A stretch of 64,000 nt of DNA from Porphyridium purpureum (lineage: Eukaryota): positions 2,356,001-2,420,000 of the forward strand of contig VRMN01000001.1 of NCBI GenBank assembly GCA_008690995.1. Reading direction: 5' to 3'. The position numbers and the translations under genes are program-made. The notes beneath the pieces were generated by a model, which did no database searches, was not told where the DNA came from, and saw only the letters and a list, made by a program, of their open reading frames with translations. Below are positions 16,501 through 32,235 of the stretch, in pieces; the stretch's first letter is position 1; each line of letters opens with the position of its first letter.

Positions 16501-16749
16501 CGTGTGCCGGGACGGATAAAAGAAGGTGCGTAAGCTGTGGACGCTCGGGCGGGAGCAGCGCGGTGCTCGCGGCGCCGGCGGTGGGACGCGATGGCCGTGG
16601 CATTTTTGCCGTCACCGGGAGCGAATGGCAGCTCGTGGGAATGGCTTGTCTGGATGCGCCCGCGTACGGCGCTGCTGCTGCGCCGCTGCGAAAGGAGCGA
16701 GCCGGACCCTCTACGCCCGCGTCGATGCCGATGTGCTCGGAGGGTTACT

Positions 16750-18132
16750 ATGAGCGCCGGTCTTGAGCAGGACCAGCAGGCGGTGCGTGAAGTAGGTAGG
16801 GCGCGCTCGGGAAAGGTAAGGGCAGCCACCGGCGTGTCCGCGTTGCCCCGGCCGATTCGTGCGCGGGCGGGCTCGCTCAGAAAAAGAAAGGCGATGGGCA
16901 TTCAGCACGGACTGGACGCAAAGACTCAAGCGAGGTTAAAGTCTGTGCCCACGAGAGCATCAGGTCTGTCGTCTCAAAGCGCCGCCGCCAAGCGAGCCAA
17001 GGCAGACGTGGACTCGAGCGAGGAGTCTCATGCCAGGGCGCTTGAGCAGCATGAACGCGAGGAGCAGCTCAGGAGGCTCGCATATCAACAGCACGTGCGG
17101 GAAATAAGAAGAAATAGGGAGCGTTTTCCGCCGCCTCGAAGACTGTTGAGCGACCCGCGAGACTCTTACAGTGTGGCGCGTAAGTTAAGCCAGGTGTCGC
17201 GTCCCGCGCTCGACCGGGACCTACCATCCGGCCCTACGAATCTGCAATCATCCATCAAGTCTAGTCGCGTAGCCTTTGAACAGGTCGGTGCCACGAAAGT
17301 GACCACTCTCAAGCATGCCACTGTCCCGGTCCTGGCCCCGGTCCCGGAAGCCGCAGATGGAAAGCAGAAGCCGTTTGGCTATTGGACAAATATACTGAAT
17401 ATGCAAGCCGAGCTTGAAAAGTTCCATGCGTCTCGCACGGATCTGTTGAACCCGTCGTCGCGCCCGCTGATTCCAGTGTACACTGTGCTTCTAAAAGCTG
17501 GCCGCTCGGATCTGCACAGTGCCATGCGGCGGCTTGGGGGGCGTGAGGAGCTAGCGCGTCAGCTCAAGATGCCGCTCGAAAAGGTGATTCACTGGCGGCA
17601 CAAACGAAAGGTGGACGAGGATTGTGTCGGGAGCATGGCTCCGCTGTCGTCGAAACCGGCCTCGTCACCGGTAGCTCGCCGCAAGCCTCCGGGATTCTGG
17701 CAAAGTTTTGAAATGTTTGGTGTGGAGTTCACAAAGTATGTGAACGAGCATTGTGACGGAGTTATGCCATCGTTTAAAAAAATGCGCGAGGACAAGCAGT
17801 ACTCGTTGATTCGAGCGCTCAAACTGCACGGTGGCGTCGAGGCCGCACACACTCGCCTAGGAATTCCGTTGCGCGTGGTGCGGAAGCGGAATGGATTCTG
17901 GAAGGACCGTGCGAACGTGGAGAGCGAATTGAATGATTACCTTTACGATCGCGTTTACAGACTGGGCACTCCATTGCCACCGCTGACGACCAACGAATTG
18001 ATTGCCCAAGGGCGGGGCACACTGGCGAAAGCTATCGCTGCACATGGGGGCTGGGCAAGCTTCCCCGAAGGCGCCAGTCTTTTAAGAAGAAAAGCCAAGA
18101 CGGAAGCCTGCGAAACTGAAAACAGTTTTTAA
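16750..18132 (+). CDS. Protein with disordered basic N-terminus and three helical repeats of about 65-90 aa (K-P/R-x-G-Y/F-W...L...GG)
   Basis: Repeats KPFGYW..GRSDLHSAMRRLGG, RKPPGFW..QYSLIRALKLHGG and RKRNGFW..GRGTLAKAIAAHGG. The start is uncertain (16750 or 16894). Confidence 0.75.
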   Translation: MSAGLEQDQQAVREVGRARSGKVRAATGVSALPRPIRARAGSLRKRKAMGIQHGLDAKTQARLKSVPTRASGLSSQSAAAKRAKADVDSSEESHARALEQHEREEQLRRLAYQQHVREIRRNRERFPPPRRLLSDPRDSYSVARKLSQVSRPALDRDLPSGPTNLQSSIKSSRVAFEQVGATKVTTLKHATVPVLAPVPEAADGKQKPFGYWTNILNMQAELEKFHASRTDLLNPSSRPLIPVYTVLLKAGRSDLHSAMRRLGGREELARQLKMPLEKVIHWRHKRKVDEDCVGSMAPLSSKPASSPVARRKPPGFWQSFEMFGVEFTKYVNEHCDGVMPSFKKMREDKQYSLIRALKLHGGVEAAHTRLGIPLRVVRKRNGFWKDRANVESELNDYLYDRVYRLGTPLPPLTTNELIAQGRGTLAKAIAAHGGWASFPEGASLLRRKAKTEACETENSF

Positions 18133-18167: not shown

Positions 18168-20447
18168 TTATACAGTTGCGAGAGATCCGGCTTTGGTCAC
18201 GAGGCGGTCCACCCATCGAACCGCCCCGCACCAGCGGAGGCTTGCCAGAATTTTGAGAGGCATAACTAGCAACGCGGCTAGAGCAGCGCTCGAGTCCTTC
18301 GATAACCACACAAAAACACGCGGATGGCACGACGCGCGAACACCATTCACCACGATGTTTTGGTTCCAAACGAGAGCGTTCACAGCCCGTGTCACACCTG
18401 CATCTTTAACGCTGAGAACGTGAAGCACATGACCCGCCGCGGAAACGAGTTGATCGCCTTGCGCCAATTCGCCGATTGTTGCTAAAGCTGGCTTACCGTG
18501 GCGCCGCGTATACACCATGTGATGTGGCGTGCCTGTCAACTGCCCCGTTCCACCATTCTCAGTATCCCAAAAGTGAACCACCAGCATCGGAACACGCACT
18601 GCAAAGTGATCATCCCGATGCTGAAGCAAAACAAGTCGCTCAAATTGCGTTGTCGCTGCATTTTCAGTACCAAACGACTCGACAAGGTCTCCTTCTTCAA
18701 GTTCGTCCAGTCTCTTCGTCATCACTAGACCTGAGGAAGGCTCTCGGACGCGCACCATGCTGTCTGCAGCGAAGCACGCCGCGCCAACATTCGAGCCATC
18801 ATTCGAACCGTCGTCGGTCACATTCGGCATGTTAGGTTGGTTGGGCCCTCCGGGATACACGAGGCCCCGCGCGTCCGCGCTGAAGCGCACGGCTCGCATC
18901 GTTCCGTCAAACAGCTCCATGCCCGAAGGACGAATGTATCTACTTTCCAATACGAAGCCGTCCGTGGCCGAATACGTCCTAGGACGTAGCTCGATTCCGA
19001 CCGACATCAGGCCCAGAGCGCCGTACGAATAGTCAATTGAAATGCCTGCAGCTCGGTAAAGCGTAGTCGATGCCGGACCTGACGTGTAATTCAGCCCGTA
19101 TCTCGCGGTCATGGCAGACGCGATCGTGTCGGCAAAGGTATACAACGATTCGTCGTCCGCACGGTCAAACTTGTACGCGTAAGGTGCGAGCACAAGCTGA
19201 CCGTAAGAGTGGACGTCGACATAAAACGCGATGCCCCGCTCGCCCTCAAGCAAGCTTCGGATGGCTTGGGTCTCCGGTTCACTGAATGCCTCCGTGCCGC
19301 GGAAAAGCGAAGAACAGATGTCATTGGAAGAAGTCGAGACACCTCCAAAACCAACAGGGTAATTGCGGTTCAAGTCGACCCCGGTGCAGGGCGAGTCTAA
19401 ATCCACTGCGCGCCTATTTTTGCGCCAGAAGCGATTGCGTTCGAATGTGTGCACGTATCCATCCGGGTTGACAATCGGCACCAGCACAAGCTCGACATTG
19501 TCCAGTAAGGCTACGATCGCCTTGTCTGTCTTCTTCGTATACTGCAAGCACAGAACTTCGGCAACGTAAATCACTGAGCTCACTGCAATCCATTCACGCG
19601 CGTGCTGCAGCCCCGTCATGACTCCGCGCACCGGAGACGACGAGGATGTGCGACCCACTCGAAAAGCATAAATGGGCCGCCCACTGGATGAGGCTCCCAA
19701 CGTGACCAGACTCAGCACCTCGGGATATAATTCGACCAGCTCCTCCATGTGTTTGTAGACGTCATCCAGATCTCGGTAGGTGTCGTAGAACGAAGAAGCA
19801 TAGAAGGTTCCGTTTTCATCCGTTGATTGGGGTAGAGGCTCTGGGCTCGATTCCGGAGAGACACTGGAGGTCCCATTCGCGTCCACGGGTTCCTCTGTAG
19901 TCTCGCTGCTCTCTTCCTGTTCGTCCGACGGATTACCTTGCCGGCCGAGCCCATCCATCTGATTTGAATGGGACTTGACCGCTGAGTCAAGGAACAATTC
20001 AGCGAGGCTATGGAGTACCACTTCCAGATCCGCAGGCGGTTGTAATGCCTCCAGCGCGGCCAACTGAGATTCGGACACGAAAATGCAAGTCCGCTCACCA
20101 TCATATCGGAGCGCATCTAAATCACCTTCACAGGTCTCGAATGCCCCAAGCGACGCCATCAAGTCGCCAATGCGCGTGGCATCCTGTTCATCCTTGGGGA
20201 AGACCGATACCGCAGCATATCCAAGCACGTCTTCGGGGGTCACACTCTCGCGCACGCTGAGAGGCACGAACGCCAGATTATTGGCGTCGACGTGCTCACG
20301 AAGACTGCGTGATTGCCGCGGAGCGTATACCCGACTCACGATCTGCTCTCTCACTTGAGTTGGTACGCCTTCGACACGCATCAGCGCCCCAGACCATAAT
20401 GTCAAAAACAGTACTAAGCACAGACTGATACATTGACACCTCTTCAT
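18168..20447 (-). CDS. Secreted M14 zinc carboxypeptidase fused to a C-terminal Hedgehog-type Hint domain
   Basis: Signal peptide MKRCQCISLCLVLFLTLWSGALMRVEG. M14 motifs are HAREW, NPDGY, WRKNR, GVDLNRNY, FSEPET, DVHSYGQ and IELR. The Hint begins at GAA|CFAADSMV (Cys codon 18774-18776), with LEEGDLV, TPHH and IVVNGVRASCH. Confidence 0.9.
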   Translation of the reverse strand: MKRCQCISLCLVLFLTLWSGALMRVEGVPTQVREQIVSRVYAPRQSRSLREHVDANNLAFVPLSVRESVTPEDVLGYAAVSVFPKDEQDATRIGDLMASLGAFETCEGDLDALRYDGERTCIFVSESQLAALEALQPPADLEVVLHSLAELFLDSAVKSHSNQMDGLGRQGNPSDEQEESSETTEEPVDANGTSSVSPESSPEPLPQSTDENGTFYASSFYDTYRDLDDVYKHMEELVELYPEVLSLVTLGASSSGRPIYAFRVGRTSSSSPVRGVMTGLQHAREWIAVSSVIYVAEVLCLQYTKKTDKAIVALLDNVELVLVPIVNPDGYVHTFERNRFWRKNRRAVDLDSPCTGVDLNRNYPVGFGGVSTSSNDICSSLFRGTEAFSEPETQAIRSLLEGERGIAFYVDVHSYGQLVLAPYAYKFDRADDESLYTFADTIASAMTARYGLNYTSGPASTTLYRAAGISIDYSYGALGLMSVGIELRPRTYSATDGFVLESRYIRPSGMELFDGTMRAVRFSADARGLVYPGGPNQPNMPNVTDDGSNDGSNVGAACFAADSMVRVREPSSGLVMTKRLDELEEGDLVESFGTENAATTQFERLVLLQHRDDHFAVRVPMLVVHFWDTENGGTGQLTGTPHHMVYTRRHGKPALATIGELAQGDQLVSAAGHVLHVLSVKDAGVTRAVNALVWNQNIVVNGVRASCHPRVFVWLSKDSSAALAALLVMPLKILASLRWCGAVRWVDRLVTKAGSLATV

Positions 20448-21569
20448 GTTTGTGGCAGCAGGCGTCACGGCCTGCTTCGAGCGTGACCAGCCAGCACACC
20501 ACCAGTCTGGACCCGCTTGCAGCCGCCTGCACCCCAAACCTTACCTGTCGACACTGTATTGATATATATACCAGTCGGATTCAAACGTGCTGAGTGGAAT
20601 TAGCGTTCCGCACTCTTCTTGAAGAACCAAACCTCACCGCGAGCATGCGCCTCATGCGAAACTCGCTACGAATTTCACAGCGCATTACACACGCGAACGA
20701 CAAACCCAGGCCAAAAAGAAGGAATGACGGCATCGTAGGTTCGGCGTGCGCCCTGTTGCTGTCTGCTCAACGGGTTGTTAGCGCCACGTGCTTTGCATTT
20801 TCGCGTCCTGTTGGGACAGAGTCACCAGTACACGAGCCACTGGAAGACAGATAACCGCCCTGTTCTTCCTTCCTGCTCCGGCAAGCCCTGCACGCAGCCG
20901 GCGCTCGATATCCAATTCGACCGTTTTTCATATGAGCAGAAGTCGAAAAAAGTAAAAATAAAAATGCAGAGCCGGGTGGCTGCCCAAGCACGCTTCGGGA
21001 GGGTGTGCCCGGTGTTTCTAGTAAAACGCCGCCGTTTCATAGGGACCCTGCGCCAGTTCCACGGAAATGGGTGAGTGCCTGCCACGTGTTGGCGCGGGCT
21101 CGGTGCGGTTGCGCTGCCGGAATGGACCAATCGGACGCTTGAATTCGCCGCCAGCAGCAGCGGCCGGCGCCCCATGGACAAGGTGAGGCGCTCCCCGCAC
21201 CGCGCGCGTTGGACAGACCCCGTTGCCTCGCGTGAGTTCCGCGTCAGCCCGCAACTGCCCGCAACTGCCCGCGTGCACGTTGGAGCGTTCGCGCGGAGGT
21301 TACGTGGGACGCGCGCATGCCGCCCCCGCGCTGTGGTGACGAAGCGCGGCGCAAGAGTCATTGCACCCGGTCCTCGGCGCACAGGAGCCCCGTCCGTACT
21401 TTTTGGAGTGAGCGCAGAATGAAAGCACTAATGGTTTCAACTTTCGAGGGCAACCGAGAAACATGTTCGGATCATCCACTACAAGTTTGAAATGCGGGTG
21501 TTTTCAAATGATTTTCATATTTTTGCACACCTCACTATACTCCTAATGTCCCCTCTAGGTGTGATCTGG

Positions 21570-24924: not shown

Positions 24925-27186
24925 TTATCGTCGCTTCTTGACCTTGAAGCCCTCCGATTCCGAGTCGACAAATGTGGTGTCCTGGAACTTAAGCCGCCTT
25001 GTCTTGGCATGCTTCGACTGCACGGGCTTTTCAAACACGCAATTTTCAAAGCGCACGCCGGACATCTTCGCAGCCTCAAACAGCGTGTCGCCCTTGAACA
25101 CGCAGTAGCTGAACACAACATTCTTCAACGTAGCGTCCGAAAAGTCCGCCTCCTCTTCAAACGTCACGTCTGTGAATCGCGTCTTGCTCAAGTAGCTGCC
25201 AACAAACTTGGCCGGTCCGCTGAACGAGATATTTGTGAAGCGTGCGCTGCTCACCTGGGTGCCAGATATGCGCAAAAGCGAGCCTTTTCCGAATACCGAG
25301 TCCACCAGATCAAACCTATCGAGCTTGCTCTTCGAGACGCGCAATTGGCCGCCCTCCACTACTTTCACACCGGAAACGCTCATTTTCGAAGCCTTGCTCT
25401 TGTCCACGGAAACCAAGCCTGCCACTTGCACAGCGCTCATCTTCACAGCTGCCAGCGTCGACTCCTCGATGGACAGTGTACCGTCAATGACGAGCTGCTC
25501 CATTGAAACGGCCTTCATCGAGCCCTTGAACGCGCGGAAAACGTCCTTGATCCAAAGCTTTTTCAGCTCTACCTTCGCAAGGGTGGGTTCGCGAAGGACG
25601 ACAGCCCCTCCAAAACCAATATCGTGAATCTGAACTCGATTCAGCTTTGGTTTCTCGAATACGGCCGACCCGCCAAAGAGAACCACGCTCGCGGTGCACT
25701 TCAACATTTTCAGGCCACCCATAAATGACGACTTGCGTATCTCGACCTGAGCAGAGAAGTCAACGAAAAAAAGAAAATCAAGAAAAGAAGACAAAGAAGG
25801 GAGAGCACAGAAGAGAGATCAAACGATAAAGATATTCGCGTTCTGTCAGATATCATTCTCGTCCAGAGCTGGCACCTACACTGCACGAACCGATGCTCTC
25901 AAGACCATGTACAAACACGTTACGGCCGGCAAGACGCGATAAAGGGCGCGAGCACCGGTGCTTTTTTCATGTTCCCAGCGGTACTTTTTTCTTGCTCAAG
26001 TAACACAGATTCGGAGTTATACCACTGGGAACGTAGCCCCGCATACCCGCAGTACGAATCTTGAGCGTGATTTGCCTTGCTGCCATACAATCAAACATGG
26101 TCATATGATGAAGCGAAAAGACAAACAAAGCAGACTAAAAAGAAGATGAGTAAGTGTGCAGCGTAAACGTACCTCATCGAAATCGGATTTAAACAGGTAC
26201 GGCTTCTCCATCGATGCACTGCCTGCCACCGCCACGTTCGAGACCTGCGAGCTTTTAACAATCAGCTTGTCCATGACAAGATCCTGAGCCACGTCGAGTC
26301 CACGTACTTCGCTACTGACCAGCTTTGGCGCTGTTAAACGCATGCTACCAGAGACGACCATGTTCACGAGCTGTGATTTGCTTAAATACATCTTGACCGC
26401 GTCTAGCGCGCCCAGTGCAGCATTGAACACGCGAGTTTGGTGCAAGTACGGCTTGAAGGCGCTGGTGCTACCCGCCACGCGAATGGAGCGGAGCACAGAC
26501 TTGTAAAAGTACGGCTTCTGAACAGTGAGAGGCCCGTAAACATCCACGTCGCTGACAAGTGAATCGTCAAAGTACGGCTTGAAAAGATCTGCGCTGCCCT
26601 TGAATATCATGCCGAGCAGCATGGTTGTCTTTGCGTACGGCTTGTACATGATCGCCGGTTCCATGAAAAATACACTGTTCATGTAAGATTTGCGCAGTGT
26701 CCAGGCTCCAAACCGCGACGTCGACACGAATGTTGCGTTGGACCACGCGCTCTTGAATCCGTACAATTTCCCTGTGGTGCCGACGCCCGCAAAGGTCGTG
26801 TTTCTGAGCGCGGTTTTCTTGTACGAAGCCCACTTCGACTGCTTCAGGGGCAGTGCGACCACGGCATTATCCACGCGCGCCTTGAAGATCTGGACAAAGG
26901 CGTTGTCCTGGATGTCGAACGGATCATAGGACTTTGAGGTCCAAATCGCGGCGGTATCGCGGGTGACGAACGCCGGGATGCCCGGTCGCGTGATCACAAT
27001 CAGCACGACGGCCATGATCATCATCAGCGCCGAGAACATGACTGCGGCGCCGAGCCCGACCATCACGAGCGGGTTCTCGAGCGTGTCGGCGGCGCTGTCC
27101 GGCACGCCCATGTCCTTGAGCTTCTTGTGGAACGCGGAGCCGCCCGCTCCCCCGCCCGCCGCTGGCGCAGCCCCGACCGTCGCCAT
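24925..27186 (-). CDS. Membrane-anchored beta-solenoid / pentapeptide-repeat protein; two exons (27186-26173, 25746-24925)
   Basis: TM segment LVMVGLGAAVMFSALMMIMAVVLIVI, then 21-22 aa repeats with recurrent KPY. The later units resemble pentapeptide repeats (FTDVTFEEEADFSDATLKNVVFSYCVFKGDTLF). Splicing joins the two track ORFs in phase 0 as ...KSDFDE|VEIRKS... Confidence 0.8.
25747..26172 (-). other. Spliceosomal GT-AG intron, 426 nt
   Basis: Donor GAG|GTACGT, long pyrimidine tract, TTGAC branch-like site and acceptor CTCAG|GTC. Removal restores the frame and the repeat pattern. Confidence 0.8.
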
Positions 27187-29818: not shown

Positions 29819-30928
29819 ATGGCAATGCACGCGACGCTCCGCGCTTTGGCCCGCTGCTCGAATCCGCGCGCTTACCATCCTACCCACGCCGGCACGCGAT
29901 TCAATAAGATTACCGAGCAGACAAGCACAAGATGGCGTCTTGAAGTGCTAGGCGTAGGTCCTGCGCCCGCGTTTTGTCGCAAGTTACAGCGTGGCTTCTG
30001 CACGATTACTGATGCGGTGGATCAAGGTGAGAGCGTAACAAGCGCTGTTCAAGATGGACTTGCGGGGGGAGATGAATGGCACGAAGAAACGGCATCCGCG
30101 CCTCCGCAGAAAACACCTGTGCTCTTGTCAGATCTCCCAAAGGAACTTGTGGACAAGTATGTGCATAAGCTGGGCTCGTGGCGAACCACTTTCAGGACTC
30201 CCGTTTATACGCTGCCATACCTTGAGGCTCCGGATGAGGAGATTGCAACCATGGACAAAGACATGATACGAGTGCTGCTCAAAGCATATGGCGAGCGCGT
30301 GTGGGTGCCCATGAAAGGATACATTAAGCCAAAAGGAAAGCAATCGAGGATTGAAAAGAACAAAAAGCTGCTCAACGAGCAAAAGGAGCAATGGCCAGAA
30401 ATCTGGCGCAGGCGTCTGCGAATCAGTACACAGATCACCAACAAGCAGCAGGTAAAGCGCGGCACAGTGGTCAGTAACAAAATGGATCGGACTGTCAATG
30501 TGGCCGTGCGCGTGGTTAAGTATGTGCCAAAGTTTAACAAGCACTATTTCAAGCACCACAAATTCTTTGCGCATGATGAGTACAATCTATGTCGCGAAGG
30601 AGACGAAGTCGCCATCAAGCAGCTCAAGACAGGCAATTTGACAGAGCGGAAAAACTGGGTGATCATAGAGAATTATGGTAGCCGCGTGTTGAAGAAAGAT
30701 CCGCGAAAGGAACTTCTCCTTGCGTACATCGAGCAGCGCTTACTCATCGAAAGGCTCGAAAGAGAGACGAAGCGTAAGATCCGGCCGTATCCCAAAATAT
30801 CCCGGCAGGAGCAGCTCAAGGCCGAACTCGACGCTGCAGTTGCTATGCGTGACCTGAGCATCACAATACCACCGATCCCGGGTCAAGAAAGCGCAGATAG
30901 CCAATCGCAGGATAGCGGGTCGATCTAA
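29819..30928 (+). CDS. MRPS17: Mitochondrial ribosomal protein uS17m with long N- and C-terminal extensions
   Basis: GTVVSNKMDRTVNVAV...KFFAHDEYNLCREGDEVAI...RKNW S17 signature and an Arg/Ala-rich presequence. Confidence 0.8.
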   Translation: MAMHATLRALARCSNPRAYHPTHAGTRFNKITEQTSTRWRLEVLGVGPAPAFCRKLQRGFCTITDAVDQGESVTSAVQDGLAGGDEWHEETASAPPQKTPVLLSDLPKELVDKYVHKLGSWRTTFRTPVYTLPYLEAPDEEIATMDKDMIRVLLKAYGERVWVPMKGYIKPKGKQSRIEKNKKLLNEQKEQWPEIWRRRLRISTQITNKQQVKRGTVVSNKMDRTVNVAVRVVKYVPKFNKHYFKHHKFFAHDEYNLCREGDEVAIKQLKTGNLTERKNWVIIENYGSRVLKKDPRKELLLAYIEQRLLIERLERETKRKIRPYPKISRQEQLKAELDAAVAMRDLSITIPPIPGQESADSQSQDSGSI

Positions 30929-31089: not shown

Positions 31090-32235
31090 ATGCTGCATGT
31101 TAGCGCGATCAACTGGGGGGTTAGAATGGCCCGTCCAGCGGCAGCCAGTCGAAGTCGGCGCGAGCACAGGCCGCCCGGAATACCATCGGTAGCATCGAAG
31201 CGGCGCGGGACAGCTCCCATCTTTTCGTCCTCGCTTGGTATTGGGGTAACCGCGGCCGCTGCGGCAGTGCTGCTGGCTGGGGCATGTCGAACGTTTTATT
31301 GGCCTCGCTCGGTGAGCCACGGATCATTAACTGCCGTGTCTTCTTCAGCGTCGCAATCACCCTCGCCATCGCCGCCCGCGGGGGAGGAACATCAAGCGAC
31401 CCTTGGCGTGCTGAATGCGCCCGTCTACTCGTATCAGTTACATGACACCCACGTTCATGACACGGACTCGTTCACACAAGGATTGCTGAGCATTGGACGT
31501 GGCCAGTTCCTGGAATCGTCAGGAGGTTTTGGCGACAGCACGATACGCAGGTTCACACTCGGTCAGAGGAAGGCAGACCAGAAGGAGCTTCTACCCGGAA
31601 CGCTTTTCGGCGAGGGAATCGAAATCGTGGGAGACAAACTGTACCAAATTACGTGGCTGAGCGAGCAAGGTCTGATCTATGACGCCGCGACCCTCCAGCT
31701 CACCGGTGAATGGAAATACAAAGGGGCTGGATGGGGGCTTGCGTACGTGCCGGAGCTGGGTACCTTGTTCATGAGCAACGGCACGTCACTTCTGACTCGA
31801 TTTGATCCGCAATCACTGGAGCCTCTCGCCAGCAATCCGCATGTGCGTGTCTTCGACGGCCCGAATGAGATCCATCTGCTGAATGACATGCAGTATGTCC
31901 GCGGAGAACTGTGGGCAAACATTTTCGGGTCCATGCTGGTAGCGAGAATCGACCCCGCAACTGGCAAAGTGAACAGCTGGGTCGACTTTACTGGTATTCT
32001 TCGACAGGAGCACATGGTCGGTCATGAGAATGTGAAACTGGACGTGTTCAACGGCATTGCGTTCGACGACGCCACCGGGCACGCGTTTGTCACGGGCAAG
32101 CGATGGCCTGTGCTTTTCGAAGTGAGCGTGCGCAACGATCACCCGTACAGCAAATCGCGCAAACAGCAGCTCCAGCCTTTCTTCCTGTACCCCGAGCGGC
32201 TCGCGCGCGTGCAACGCGCAGTCGGCACCGCCTGA
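31090..32235 (+). CDS. Glutaminyl-peptide cyclotransferase, plant/bacterial beta-propeller type, N-terminally anchored
   Basis: HDTDSFTQGL, FLESSG, FGEGI, LYQITW, GWGL, MSNGTS, LNDMQYVRGELWANI, VFNGIAFD and VTGKRWP. The start may be 31126. Confidence 0.92.
   Translation: MLHVSAINWGVRMARPAAASRSRREHRPPGIPSVASKRRGTAPIFSSSLGIGVTAAAAAVLLAGACRTFYWPRSVSHGSLTAVSSSASQSPSPSPPAGEEHQATLGVLNAPVYSYQLHDTHVHDTDSFTQGLLSIGRGQFLESSGGFGDSTIRRFTLGQRKADQKELLPGTLFGEGIEIVGDKLYQITWLSEQGLIYDAATLQLTGEWKYKGAGWGLAYVPELGTLFMSNGTSLLTRFDPQSLEPLASNPHVRVFDGPNEIHLLNDMQYVRGELWANIFGSMLVARIDPATGKVNSWVDFTGILRQEHMVGHENVKLDVFNGIAFDDATGHAFVTGKRWPVLFEVSVRNDHPYSKSRKQQLQPFFLYPERLARVQRAVGTA

Follow-up and report, generated by a model that had tools for sequence, protein, structure and literature searches.

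Here, we found that a single reading frame of Porphyridium purpureum, at 18168-20447(-) of the window (the whole stretch of 64,000 nucleotides analysed), combines a signal-like start, a probable activation peptide, a complete M14A carboxypeptidase, a linker, a Hint domain of the Hedgehog type and a tail of two helices (Table 1). The original prediction that an M14 carboxypeptidase and a Hint domain share one gene was borne out: the 759-aa frame has exactly these ends, and Pfam matches both domains, Peptidase_M14 at aa 231-513 and Hint at aa 557-711. The motifs on which that prediction had been built were all found, namely HAREW (aa 282-286), DVH (411-413), IELR (485-488), AACF (556-559), QHRD (609-612), TPHH (640-643), VNGVRASCH (700-708) and ALAALL (722-727). 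As the best explanation, which we hold tentatively, a self-cleaving Hog tail would hand the enzyme over to an alcohol of the membrane, for which a sterol is the most probable candidate.

Table 1. Features of the M14-Hog gene and its product (positions in the window)
Feature	Position	Strand	Basis
M14A carboxypeptidase-Hog fusion frame	18168..20447	(-)	one ATG-to-stop ORF, 759 aa; joint-free RNA-library contigs
Predicted signal peptide, aa 1 to about 28	20364..20447	(-)	hydropathy peak 1.9 at aa 4-25 after MKR
Probable activation peptide, Propep_M14-like, aa 62-167	19947..20264	(-)	Atlas structure TM 0.60 to PF02244, feature score 0.90
Acidic Ser/Glu/Pro-rich disordered spacer, 48 aa, aa 168-215	19803..19946	(-)	pLDDT < 50; sequence
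M14A catalytic domain, aa 216-528	18864..19802	(-)	Pfam, CPA alignment, residue map, structure superposition
Pro/Asn/Asp/Gly linker, aa 529-557, last residue Ala557 (-1)	18777..18863	(-)	sequence
Hedgehog-type Hint domain, aa 558-708	18324..18776	(-)	Pfam, AlphaFold/Foldseek, profiles, Atlas
Cys558, Hint Cys1	18774..18776	(-)	aligned to Cys1 of 1at0/6tyy; Cys in 19/19 relatives
His610, at Hedgehog Asp46 (natural D46H)	18618..18620	(-)	aligned to His46 of 6tyy; His in 17/19 relatives
TxxH of block B, Thr640 and His643	18519..18530	(-)	motif map, profile, relatives
Cys707, at Hedgehog Cys143	18327..18329	(-)	profile alignments; Cys in 10/19 relatives
Two-helix tail (SRR/ARR position), aa 709-759	18171..18323	(-)	helix 720-736 with Pro730 and Lys732; amphipathic helix 740-758; no HWY

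Is the fusion a property of the genome or of a gene model? In 20 of the 24 sequencing runs listed, half or more of the words of the gene are present, 4 of these runs being recorded as RNA; the runs X21-X24 contain almost none of them, which proves nothing about absence. In all four runs examined, both domains lie on a single jointless contig, which spans the entire frame in three runs and all but its first 55 bases in one, and all four lack cover over the upstream interval 20824-21225, as RNA would give. The stop-free frame and these jointless contigs rule out a gene-model artefact as the source of the fusion. For the proposed check on transcripts, both domains are thus covered without a joint, but such contigs alone do not establish a single mRNA, because they continue into the convergent neighbour at 16591-18132(+). 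That RNA contigs cross both genes suggests that their 3' ends overlap. The neighbour encodes 513 aa in which a G-(Y/F)-W motif is repeated three times, its stop lies 35 bases from that of the M14-Hog gene, and its product gave no Pfam match above the cut-off.

Between runs, we observed eight variants in the frame, five changing an amino acid and three silent; none breaks the frame and none falls on a catalytic residue. Five of the eight lie in the Hog part (202 aa), as four non-synonymous and one synonymous change, so that this part holds four of the five amino-acid variants. These counts speak against the reading that we favour, yet selection cannot be measured from as few as five variants.

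The surrounding genes are ordinary eukaryotic ones (Rpb4, an eIF3 subunit, Snf7 and a MYST acetyltransferase), and the 64-kb window holds one Hog domain, that of the M14-Hog gene. Also present are a pentapeptide-repeat protein (24925-25722(-)), a frame of 369 aa (29819-30928(+)) in which long extensions flank a ribosomal S17 domain (aa 215-284), and two further peptide-processing enzymes, a glutamine cyclotransferase (31090-32235(+)) and a Peptidase C69 (48271-50331(+)), which lie in the same window as the M14-Hog gene. In public collections the fusion protein forms a sequence cluster with one member, and both of its domains are already annotated there.

The enzyme part was predicted to be an M14 peptidase with all ligands and catalytic residues, and the comparisons made agree with this. 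Peptidase_M14 is matched with an E of 3e-68, the alignment to bovine and human carboxypeptidase A reaches 5e-51, and the model superimposes on human CPA4 with a VIA Z of 43.7 and an rmsd of 2.0 over 304 residues. In the alignment and the residue map, the zinc ligands His282, Glu285 and His413 correspond to CPA positions 69, 72 and 196, and Arg342, Asn360, Arg361, Tyr464 and Glu486 to positions 127, 144, 145, 248 and 270. The domain has the residues expected of M14A (the zinc ligands, Arg127, Asn144-Arg145, Tyr248 and Glu270), and carboxypeptidase activity is predicted. Ile471 occupies CPA position 255, which we take to be a site with a role in A-type versus other substrate preference, and the mapped pocket residues are uncharged; from both we infer a probable A-type preference for hydrophobic C-terminal residues. 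The best-scoring single-domain M14 proteins are bacterial or metagenomic (222 bits versus at most 163 for arthropods). In a quick tree of 37 selected rows, all of them other than fungal or protist, the domain nests among bacterial and metagenomic rows, and its grouping with animal rows was not rejected (p-AU 0.43).

Upstream of the enzyme, the proposed signal peptide agrees with hydropathy, which is its sole basis, and the proposed prodomain-like region is matched as Propep_M14 in the Atlas (aa 62-167) but not in Pfam. A custom activation-peptide profile was likewise negative for this segment, and the AlphaFold pLDDT here is mostly 35-66. We consider aa 62-167 a probable divergent zymogen peptide on the strength of the structural match, and the acidic spacer that follows it a likely site of the activating cleavage.

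The Hint domain was correctly recognized as Hedgehog-type. The Pfam match to PF01079 scores 35.3 bits against a cut-off of 29.7 and is therefore barely above it. The AlphaFold model of aa 550-759 (pLDDT 86.8) shows a beta-rich Hint core followed by the two helices of the tail, and a Foldseek search with the Hint model matched it to two Hedgehog structures, 6tyy and 1at0, with E values between 1e-8 and 3e-8; the intein 8ubs shared the top ranks with them about equally. With a profile of the Hog relatives, all matches at E<=0.001 (four of four) are Hedgehog entries, and the Atlas likewise favours Hedgehog. A single-sequence search of the PDB with the Hint part gave no useful match, and NCBIfam gave none. 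We rejected an intein or a bacterial BIL, as there is no His-Asn end and the profile prefers Hedgehog by more than 20 orders of magnitude; unlike an intein, the domain is not inserted in a host domain, but ends in ASCH and passes into a helical tail.

The active site of Hedgehog comprises C1, D46, T69, H72 and C143, of which C143 is required (PMC12054796; papers given by PMC number are cited here for the accessible part of their text). All five positions are occupied in our protein, by Cys558, His610, Thr640, His643 and Cys707. The Asp of QHRD, originally assigned to the Hedgehog FLDRD position, is not the catalytic residue, because it is His610 that aligns with His46 of 6tyy, the structure of a D46H variant. 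Such a D46H protein processes in cells (PMC12054796), and D46H/D303H stays active, takes coprostanol and epicoprostanol far better and tolerates a wider range of sterols (PMC9163320). The residue preceding Cys1 is Ala557, which makes the cut site Ala-Cys where that of Hedgehog is Gly-Cys; we found no paper on tolerance at the Hedgehog -1 position.

A search with the Hog part against 1.84 billion representatives, in which relatives more than 50% identical would hide behind the M14-Hog protein, gave 24 other proteins at E<=0.001, with a Pfam Hint domain in 20 and an M14 domain in none of the 24. We aligned 19, omitting three repeat-driven matches without Hint and two fragments without Cys1. Twenty relatives were looked up, eight of which bear red-algal names (Porphyridium, Timspurckia, Bangiopsis) and one that of a brittle star. 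In the alignment of 19, Cys1 and His72 are present in every relative, Thr/Ser69 in 18, His46 in 17 and Cys143 in 10; the tail proline and the Lys/Arg next to it are each kept in 18, and Gly(-1) in 5. A hand-chosen red-alga-like subset of 11 (the eight with red-algal names and three others) has His46 in 11 and Cys143 in 9, and neither Gly(-1) nor a His at the H374 position in any; in 9 of these 11, helix 2 carries a hydrophobic residue followed by Asp where HWY would sit. Given these counts, His46 and a free -1 residue are traits of the family, and the conservation of His46 suggests selection for a second-step base. The tree of the Hog domains is poorly resolved, with the M14-Hog protein as a long branch.

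The N-termini of the relatives are unrelated to one another, ranging from short Cys-rich and long unassigned regions to a cupredoxin and a trypsin. Since the closest tails thus carry unrelated N-terminal domains, M14 is one cargo among many, and the parallel originally drawn with the peptidase-derived N-domain of Hedgehog is coincidental. The trypsin-like protein (P0137) is secreted-looking, with intact triad motifs, and its Hog part has His46 and Cys143, with an HGY motif and a further His, in helix 1; as judged by these residues, it is more Hedgehog-like than that of the M14-Hog protein and may be the better candidate for sterol ligation. P0130 joins a plastocyanin/azurin-type copper-binding domain via a Thr-rich linker to a Hog part with Gly(-1). 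P0127 and P0136 (Bangiopsis) and P0124 (a Porphyridium aerugineum cluster) have N-terminal regions of 430-460 aa without a Pfam match, and Trp or Val before Cys1. P0138 (Amphiura) and P0123 have Tyr at position 46 and no Cys143; in P0138, Gln also replaces the block-B Thr, and its Hog part may be inactive.

In human SHH the two tail helices are sufficient, the loop is dispensable and the N-terminal cargo is exchangeable; H374, F377, R381 and the HWY motif matter, and H374A, H433A and Y435A block cholesterolysis (PMC7242414). Helix 1 of our tail aligns to the first SRR helix of Drosophila Hedgehog and is hydrophobic, with a borderline transmembrane hydropathy of 1.82. The prediction of an amphipathic tail was right for the next helix (aa 739-756, moment up to 0.83) and wrong for the peptide it quoted, which is hydrophobic and of low moment (0.03-0.31). 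Counted from the proline, Ala725, Val728 and a Lys stand at the positions of human SHH 374, 377 and 381. We found no HWY-like tripeptide in the tail, the register of helix 2 being a manual guess, and we rejected RWV (aa 744-746) as a counterpart, as Trp745 is conserved in 0 of 19 relatives. The architecture of the tail, a Pro-kinked hairpin with a basic residue, is retained, and the sterol-specific residues are absent.

We propose that the precursor enters the ER, where the two-helix tail would dock on the luminal face of the membrane. Cys558, aided by Thr640 and His643, would then form a thioester with Ala557 by an N-S shift, possibly relayed to Cys707 as in Hedgehog, and His610 would activate the hydroxyl of a membrane sterol for attack, leaving the pro-enzyme esterified at its C-terminus and tethered to the membrane. 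A separate protease would cut the acidic spacer, and with the activation peptide lost, a surface enzyme could trim hydrophobic C-terminal residues.

The two chemical steps of this proposal differ in how far they can be trusted. Self-cleavage at Ala557-Cys558 we regard as likely, judging from the residues retained; given cleavage, the chances that a sterol is the acceptor appear to us about even. The difference arises because the hairpin is kept but the His and the HWY motif used for cholesterol ligation by SHH are missing. Sterol transfer is favoured, by analogy, by five Hint positions filled with residues known to work, by the retained hairpin and by the exchangeable cargo of SHH; red algae, moreover, make cholesterol-type sterols (PMC10817344). 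Against it stand, in the sequence, the missing equivalents of H374 (Ala725), F377 (Val), HWY and Gly(-1), as well as a fusion known from one cluster member, a Hint score near the Pfam cut-off, the long branch and the share of amino-acid variants (4/5) in Hint. Of the self-lipidating surface enzyme originally proposed, the domain architecture is supported, as are its assignment to the Hedgehog type and its ability to self-cleave; tagging with a sterol is plausible only.

The same evidence can be read without an adduct: the tail would hold the precursor at the membrane and water would resolve the thioester, releasing a free, soluble pro-carboxypeptidase. This possibility, which we consider unlikely but take seriously, fits the intact first-step residues, the loss of the SRR residues for cholesterolysis and the unconstrained -1 residue of the family, and Hedgehog without a working SRR indeed cleaves without attaching cholesterol (PMC7242414). 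However, the relatives conserve His46 and the Pro-kinked helix, which is more than hydrolysis seems to need, and residue 46 of Hedgehog keeps unproductive cleavage in check (PMC13738340). It is less probable again that the tail no longer cleaves efficiently and acts as a membrane or sorting anchor only, or that the fusion is recent and drifting. The single-member cluster, the long branch, the low Pfam score, the excess of non-synonymous changes (four versus one) in the Hog part and the borderline transmembrane helix 1 would all agree with such a decay, but every catalytic residue is kept, including a cysteine (Cys707) that only 10 of 19 relatives retain, and none of the eight variants touches a catalytic residue or the frame, five variants again saying little on selection. 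We think it improbable that the tail is an adduct-recognition region whose acceptor is not a sterol but another lipid, a hydroxyl of a matrix polysaccharide or a protein, to which the enzyme would be cross-linked, since a hydrophobic and amphipathic hairpin fits a membrane rather than a glycan and no direct evidence points to such an acceptor, even though the red-alga-like tails replace HWY by a helix-2 pattern of their own (9 of 11) and such tails were already set apart as ARR by Burglin in 2008 (PMC2362128).

Returning to transfer to a membrane sterol, it may be extended, rather doubtfully, to the whole family: with a His base, no need for Gly and many unrelated secreted proteins esterified with a sterol or another membrane lipid, red-algal Hog tails could be a self-contained C-terminal lipid anchor alternative to GPI. 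If true, the carboxypeptidase would represent a naturally sterol-anchored enzyme from outside the animals, and it would show directly that the chemistry of Hedgehog predates Hedgehog. Whether Hog attaches sterols outside animal Hedgehog has been a question since 2008, when secreted Hog proteins were described across protists and red algae and the addition of a sterol or similar moiety was postulated (PMC2362128). The M14-Hog protein is a good test case, as its Hint site is complete and the part that would be released is an enzyme from a well-studied family, which can be assayed and easily traced to membrane or medium. In addition, the Hog family bears naturally the Asp46 to His change that chemists made deliberately, and tolerates many -1 residues; a member that is active could therefore ligate proteins to a broader set of lipids. 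If hydrolysis is all that occurs, the tail of the M14-Hog protein still explains the release of a surface protein by these algae.

Sequence searches gave no second M14-Hog protein, including among the 119 other top M14 matches (the best 120 of 5813); two of the M14-Hog searches spanned 417-1329 aa, one gave three proteins and missed known relatives, and partial orthologue transcripts could escape. As no second M14-Hog protein was found, the fusion is without backing from conservation. In the literature outside subscription journals and supplements we found no M14-Hint fusion; the accessible part of PMC8778642 has no bearing on it, and the word 'peptidase' is absent from the main text of PMC2362128. 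Sterol ligation by a non-animal Hog was likewise not found in the literature, including the accessible parts of PMC13738340, PMC7906309 and PMC4695875. Kelch-Hog genes are known in Cyanidiales (PMC9812998; PMC13353863), and their function was still called unknown in 2026.

How does the protein compare with known systems? It belongs to the non-Hh Hog proteins and to M14A, not to the Hedgehogs. Two sequence features of a cholesterol ligase of the Hedgehog type, Gly(-1) and the SRR residues including HWY, are absent, while the active site is of a working type. With Hedgehog HhC (PF01079; MEROPS C46; 1at0, 6tyy, 6td6, 7e2i) it shares the Hint fold, Cys1, TxxH, Cys143 and a helix-turn-helix tail with a conserved Pro and a basic residue, but it has His for Asp46, Ala for Gly(-1), neither an H374 equivalent nor HWY, and almost no loop between the helices; M14 takes the place of the Hedge (HH_signal) domain, for which PF01085 gave no match. 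With M14A pro-carboxypeptidases (bovine CPA1, human CPA2 and CPA4, carboxypeptidase T) it has in common the probable activation peptide, the fold (Z 43.7), the zinc ligands, the catalytic residues and the Ile at 255 of the A-type, whereas the acidic spacer of 48 aa that follows this peptide is its own, as is the C-terminal Hog. The glomeromycotan AIG1-Hint proteins (GmGIN1-type) also place a recognisable enzyme domain upstream of Hog, but their cargo is a GTPase, a signal peptide is absent and the tail is more Hedgehog-like. Cyanidiales kelch-Hog (K+H) proteins likewise join a folded red-algal domain to Hog via a low-complexity linker (PMC9812998; PMC13353863); there, however, the cargo is a kelch propeller instead of a peptidase, and the genes form a described subtelomeric family, in contrast to a single gene among housekeeping genes. 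The non-Hh Hog proteins of PMC2362128 also have a signal peptide, a variable N-terminal domain and a C-terminal Hint with a helical tail; here, the N-terminal part is probably the complete zymogen of a known enzyme family, and the motif-J cysteine is kept where the red-algal sequences of that paper have Ser, Thr or Asp. Hog tails on unrelated secreted domains are known in red algae, and what is new is an M14 cargo on such a tail.
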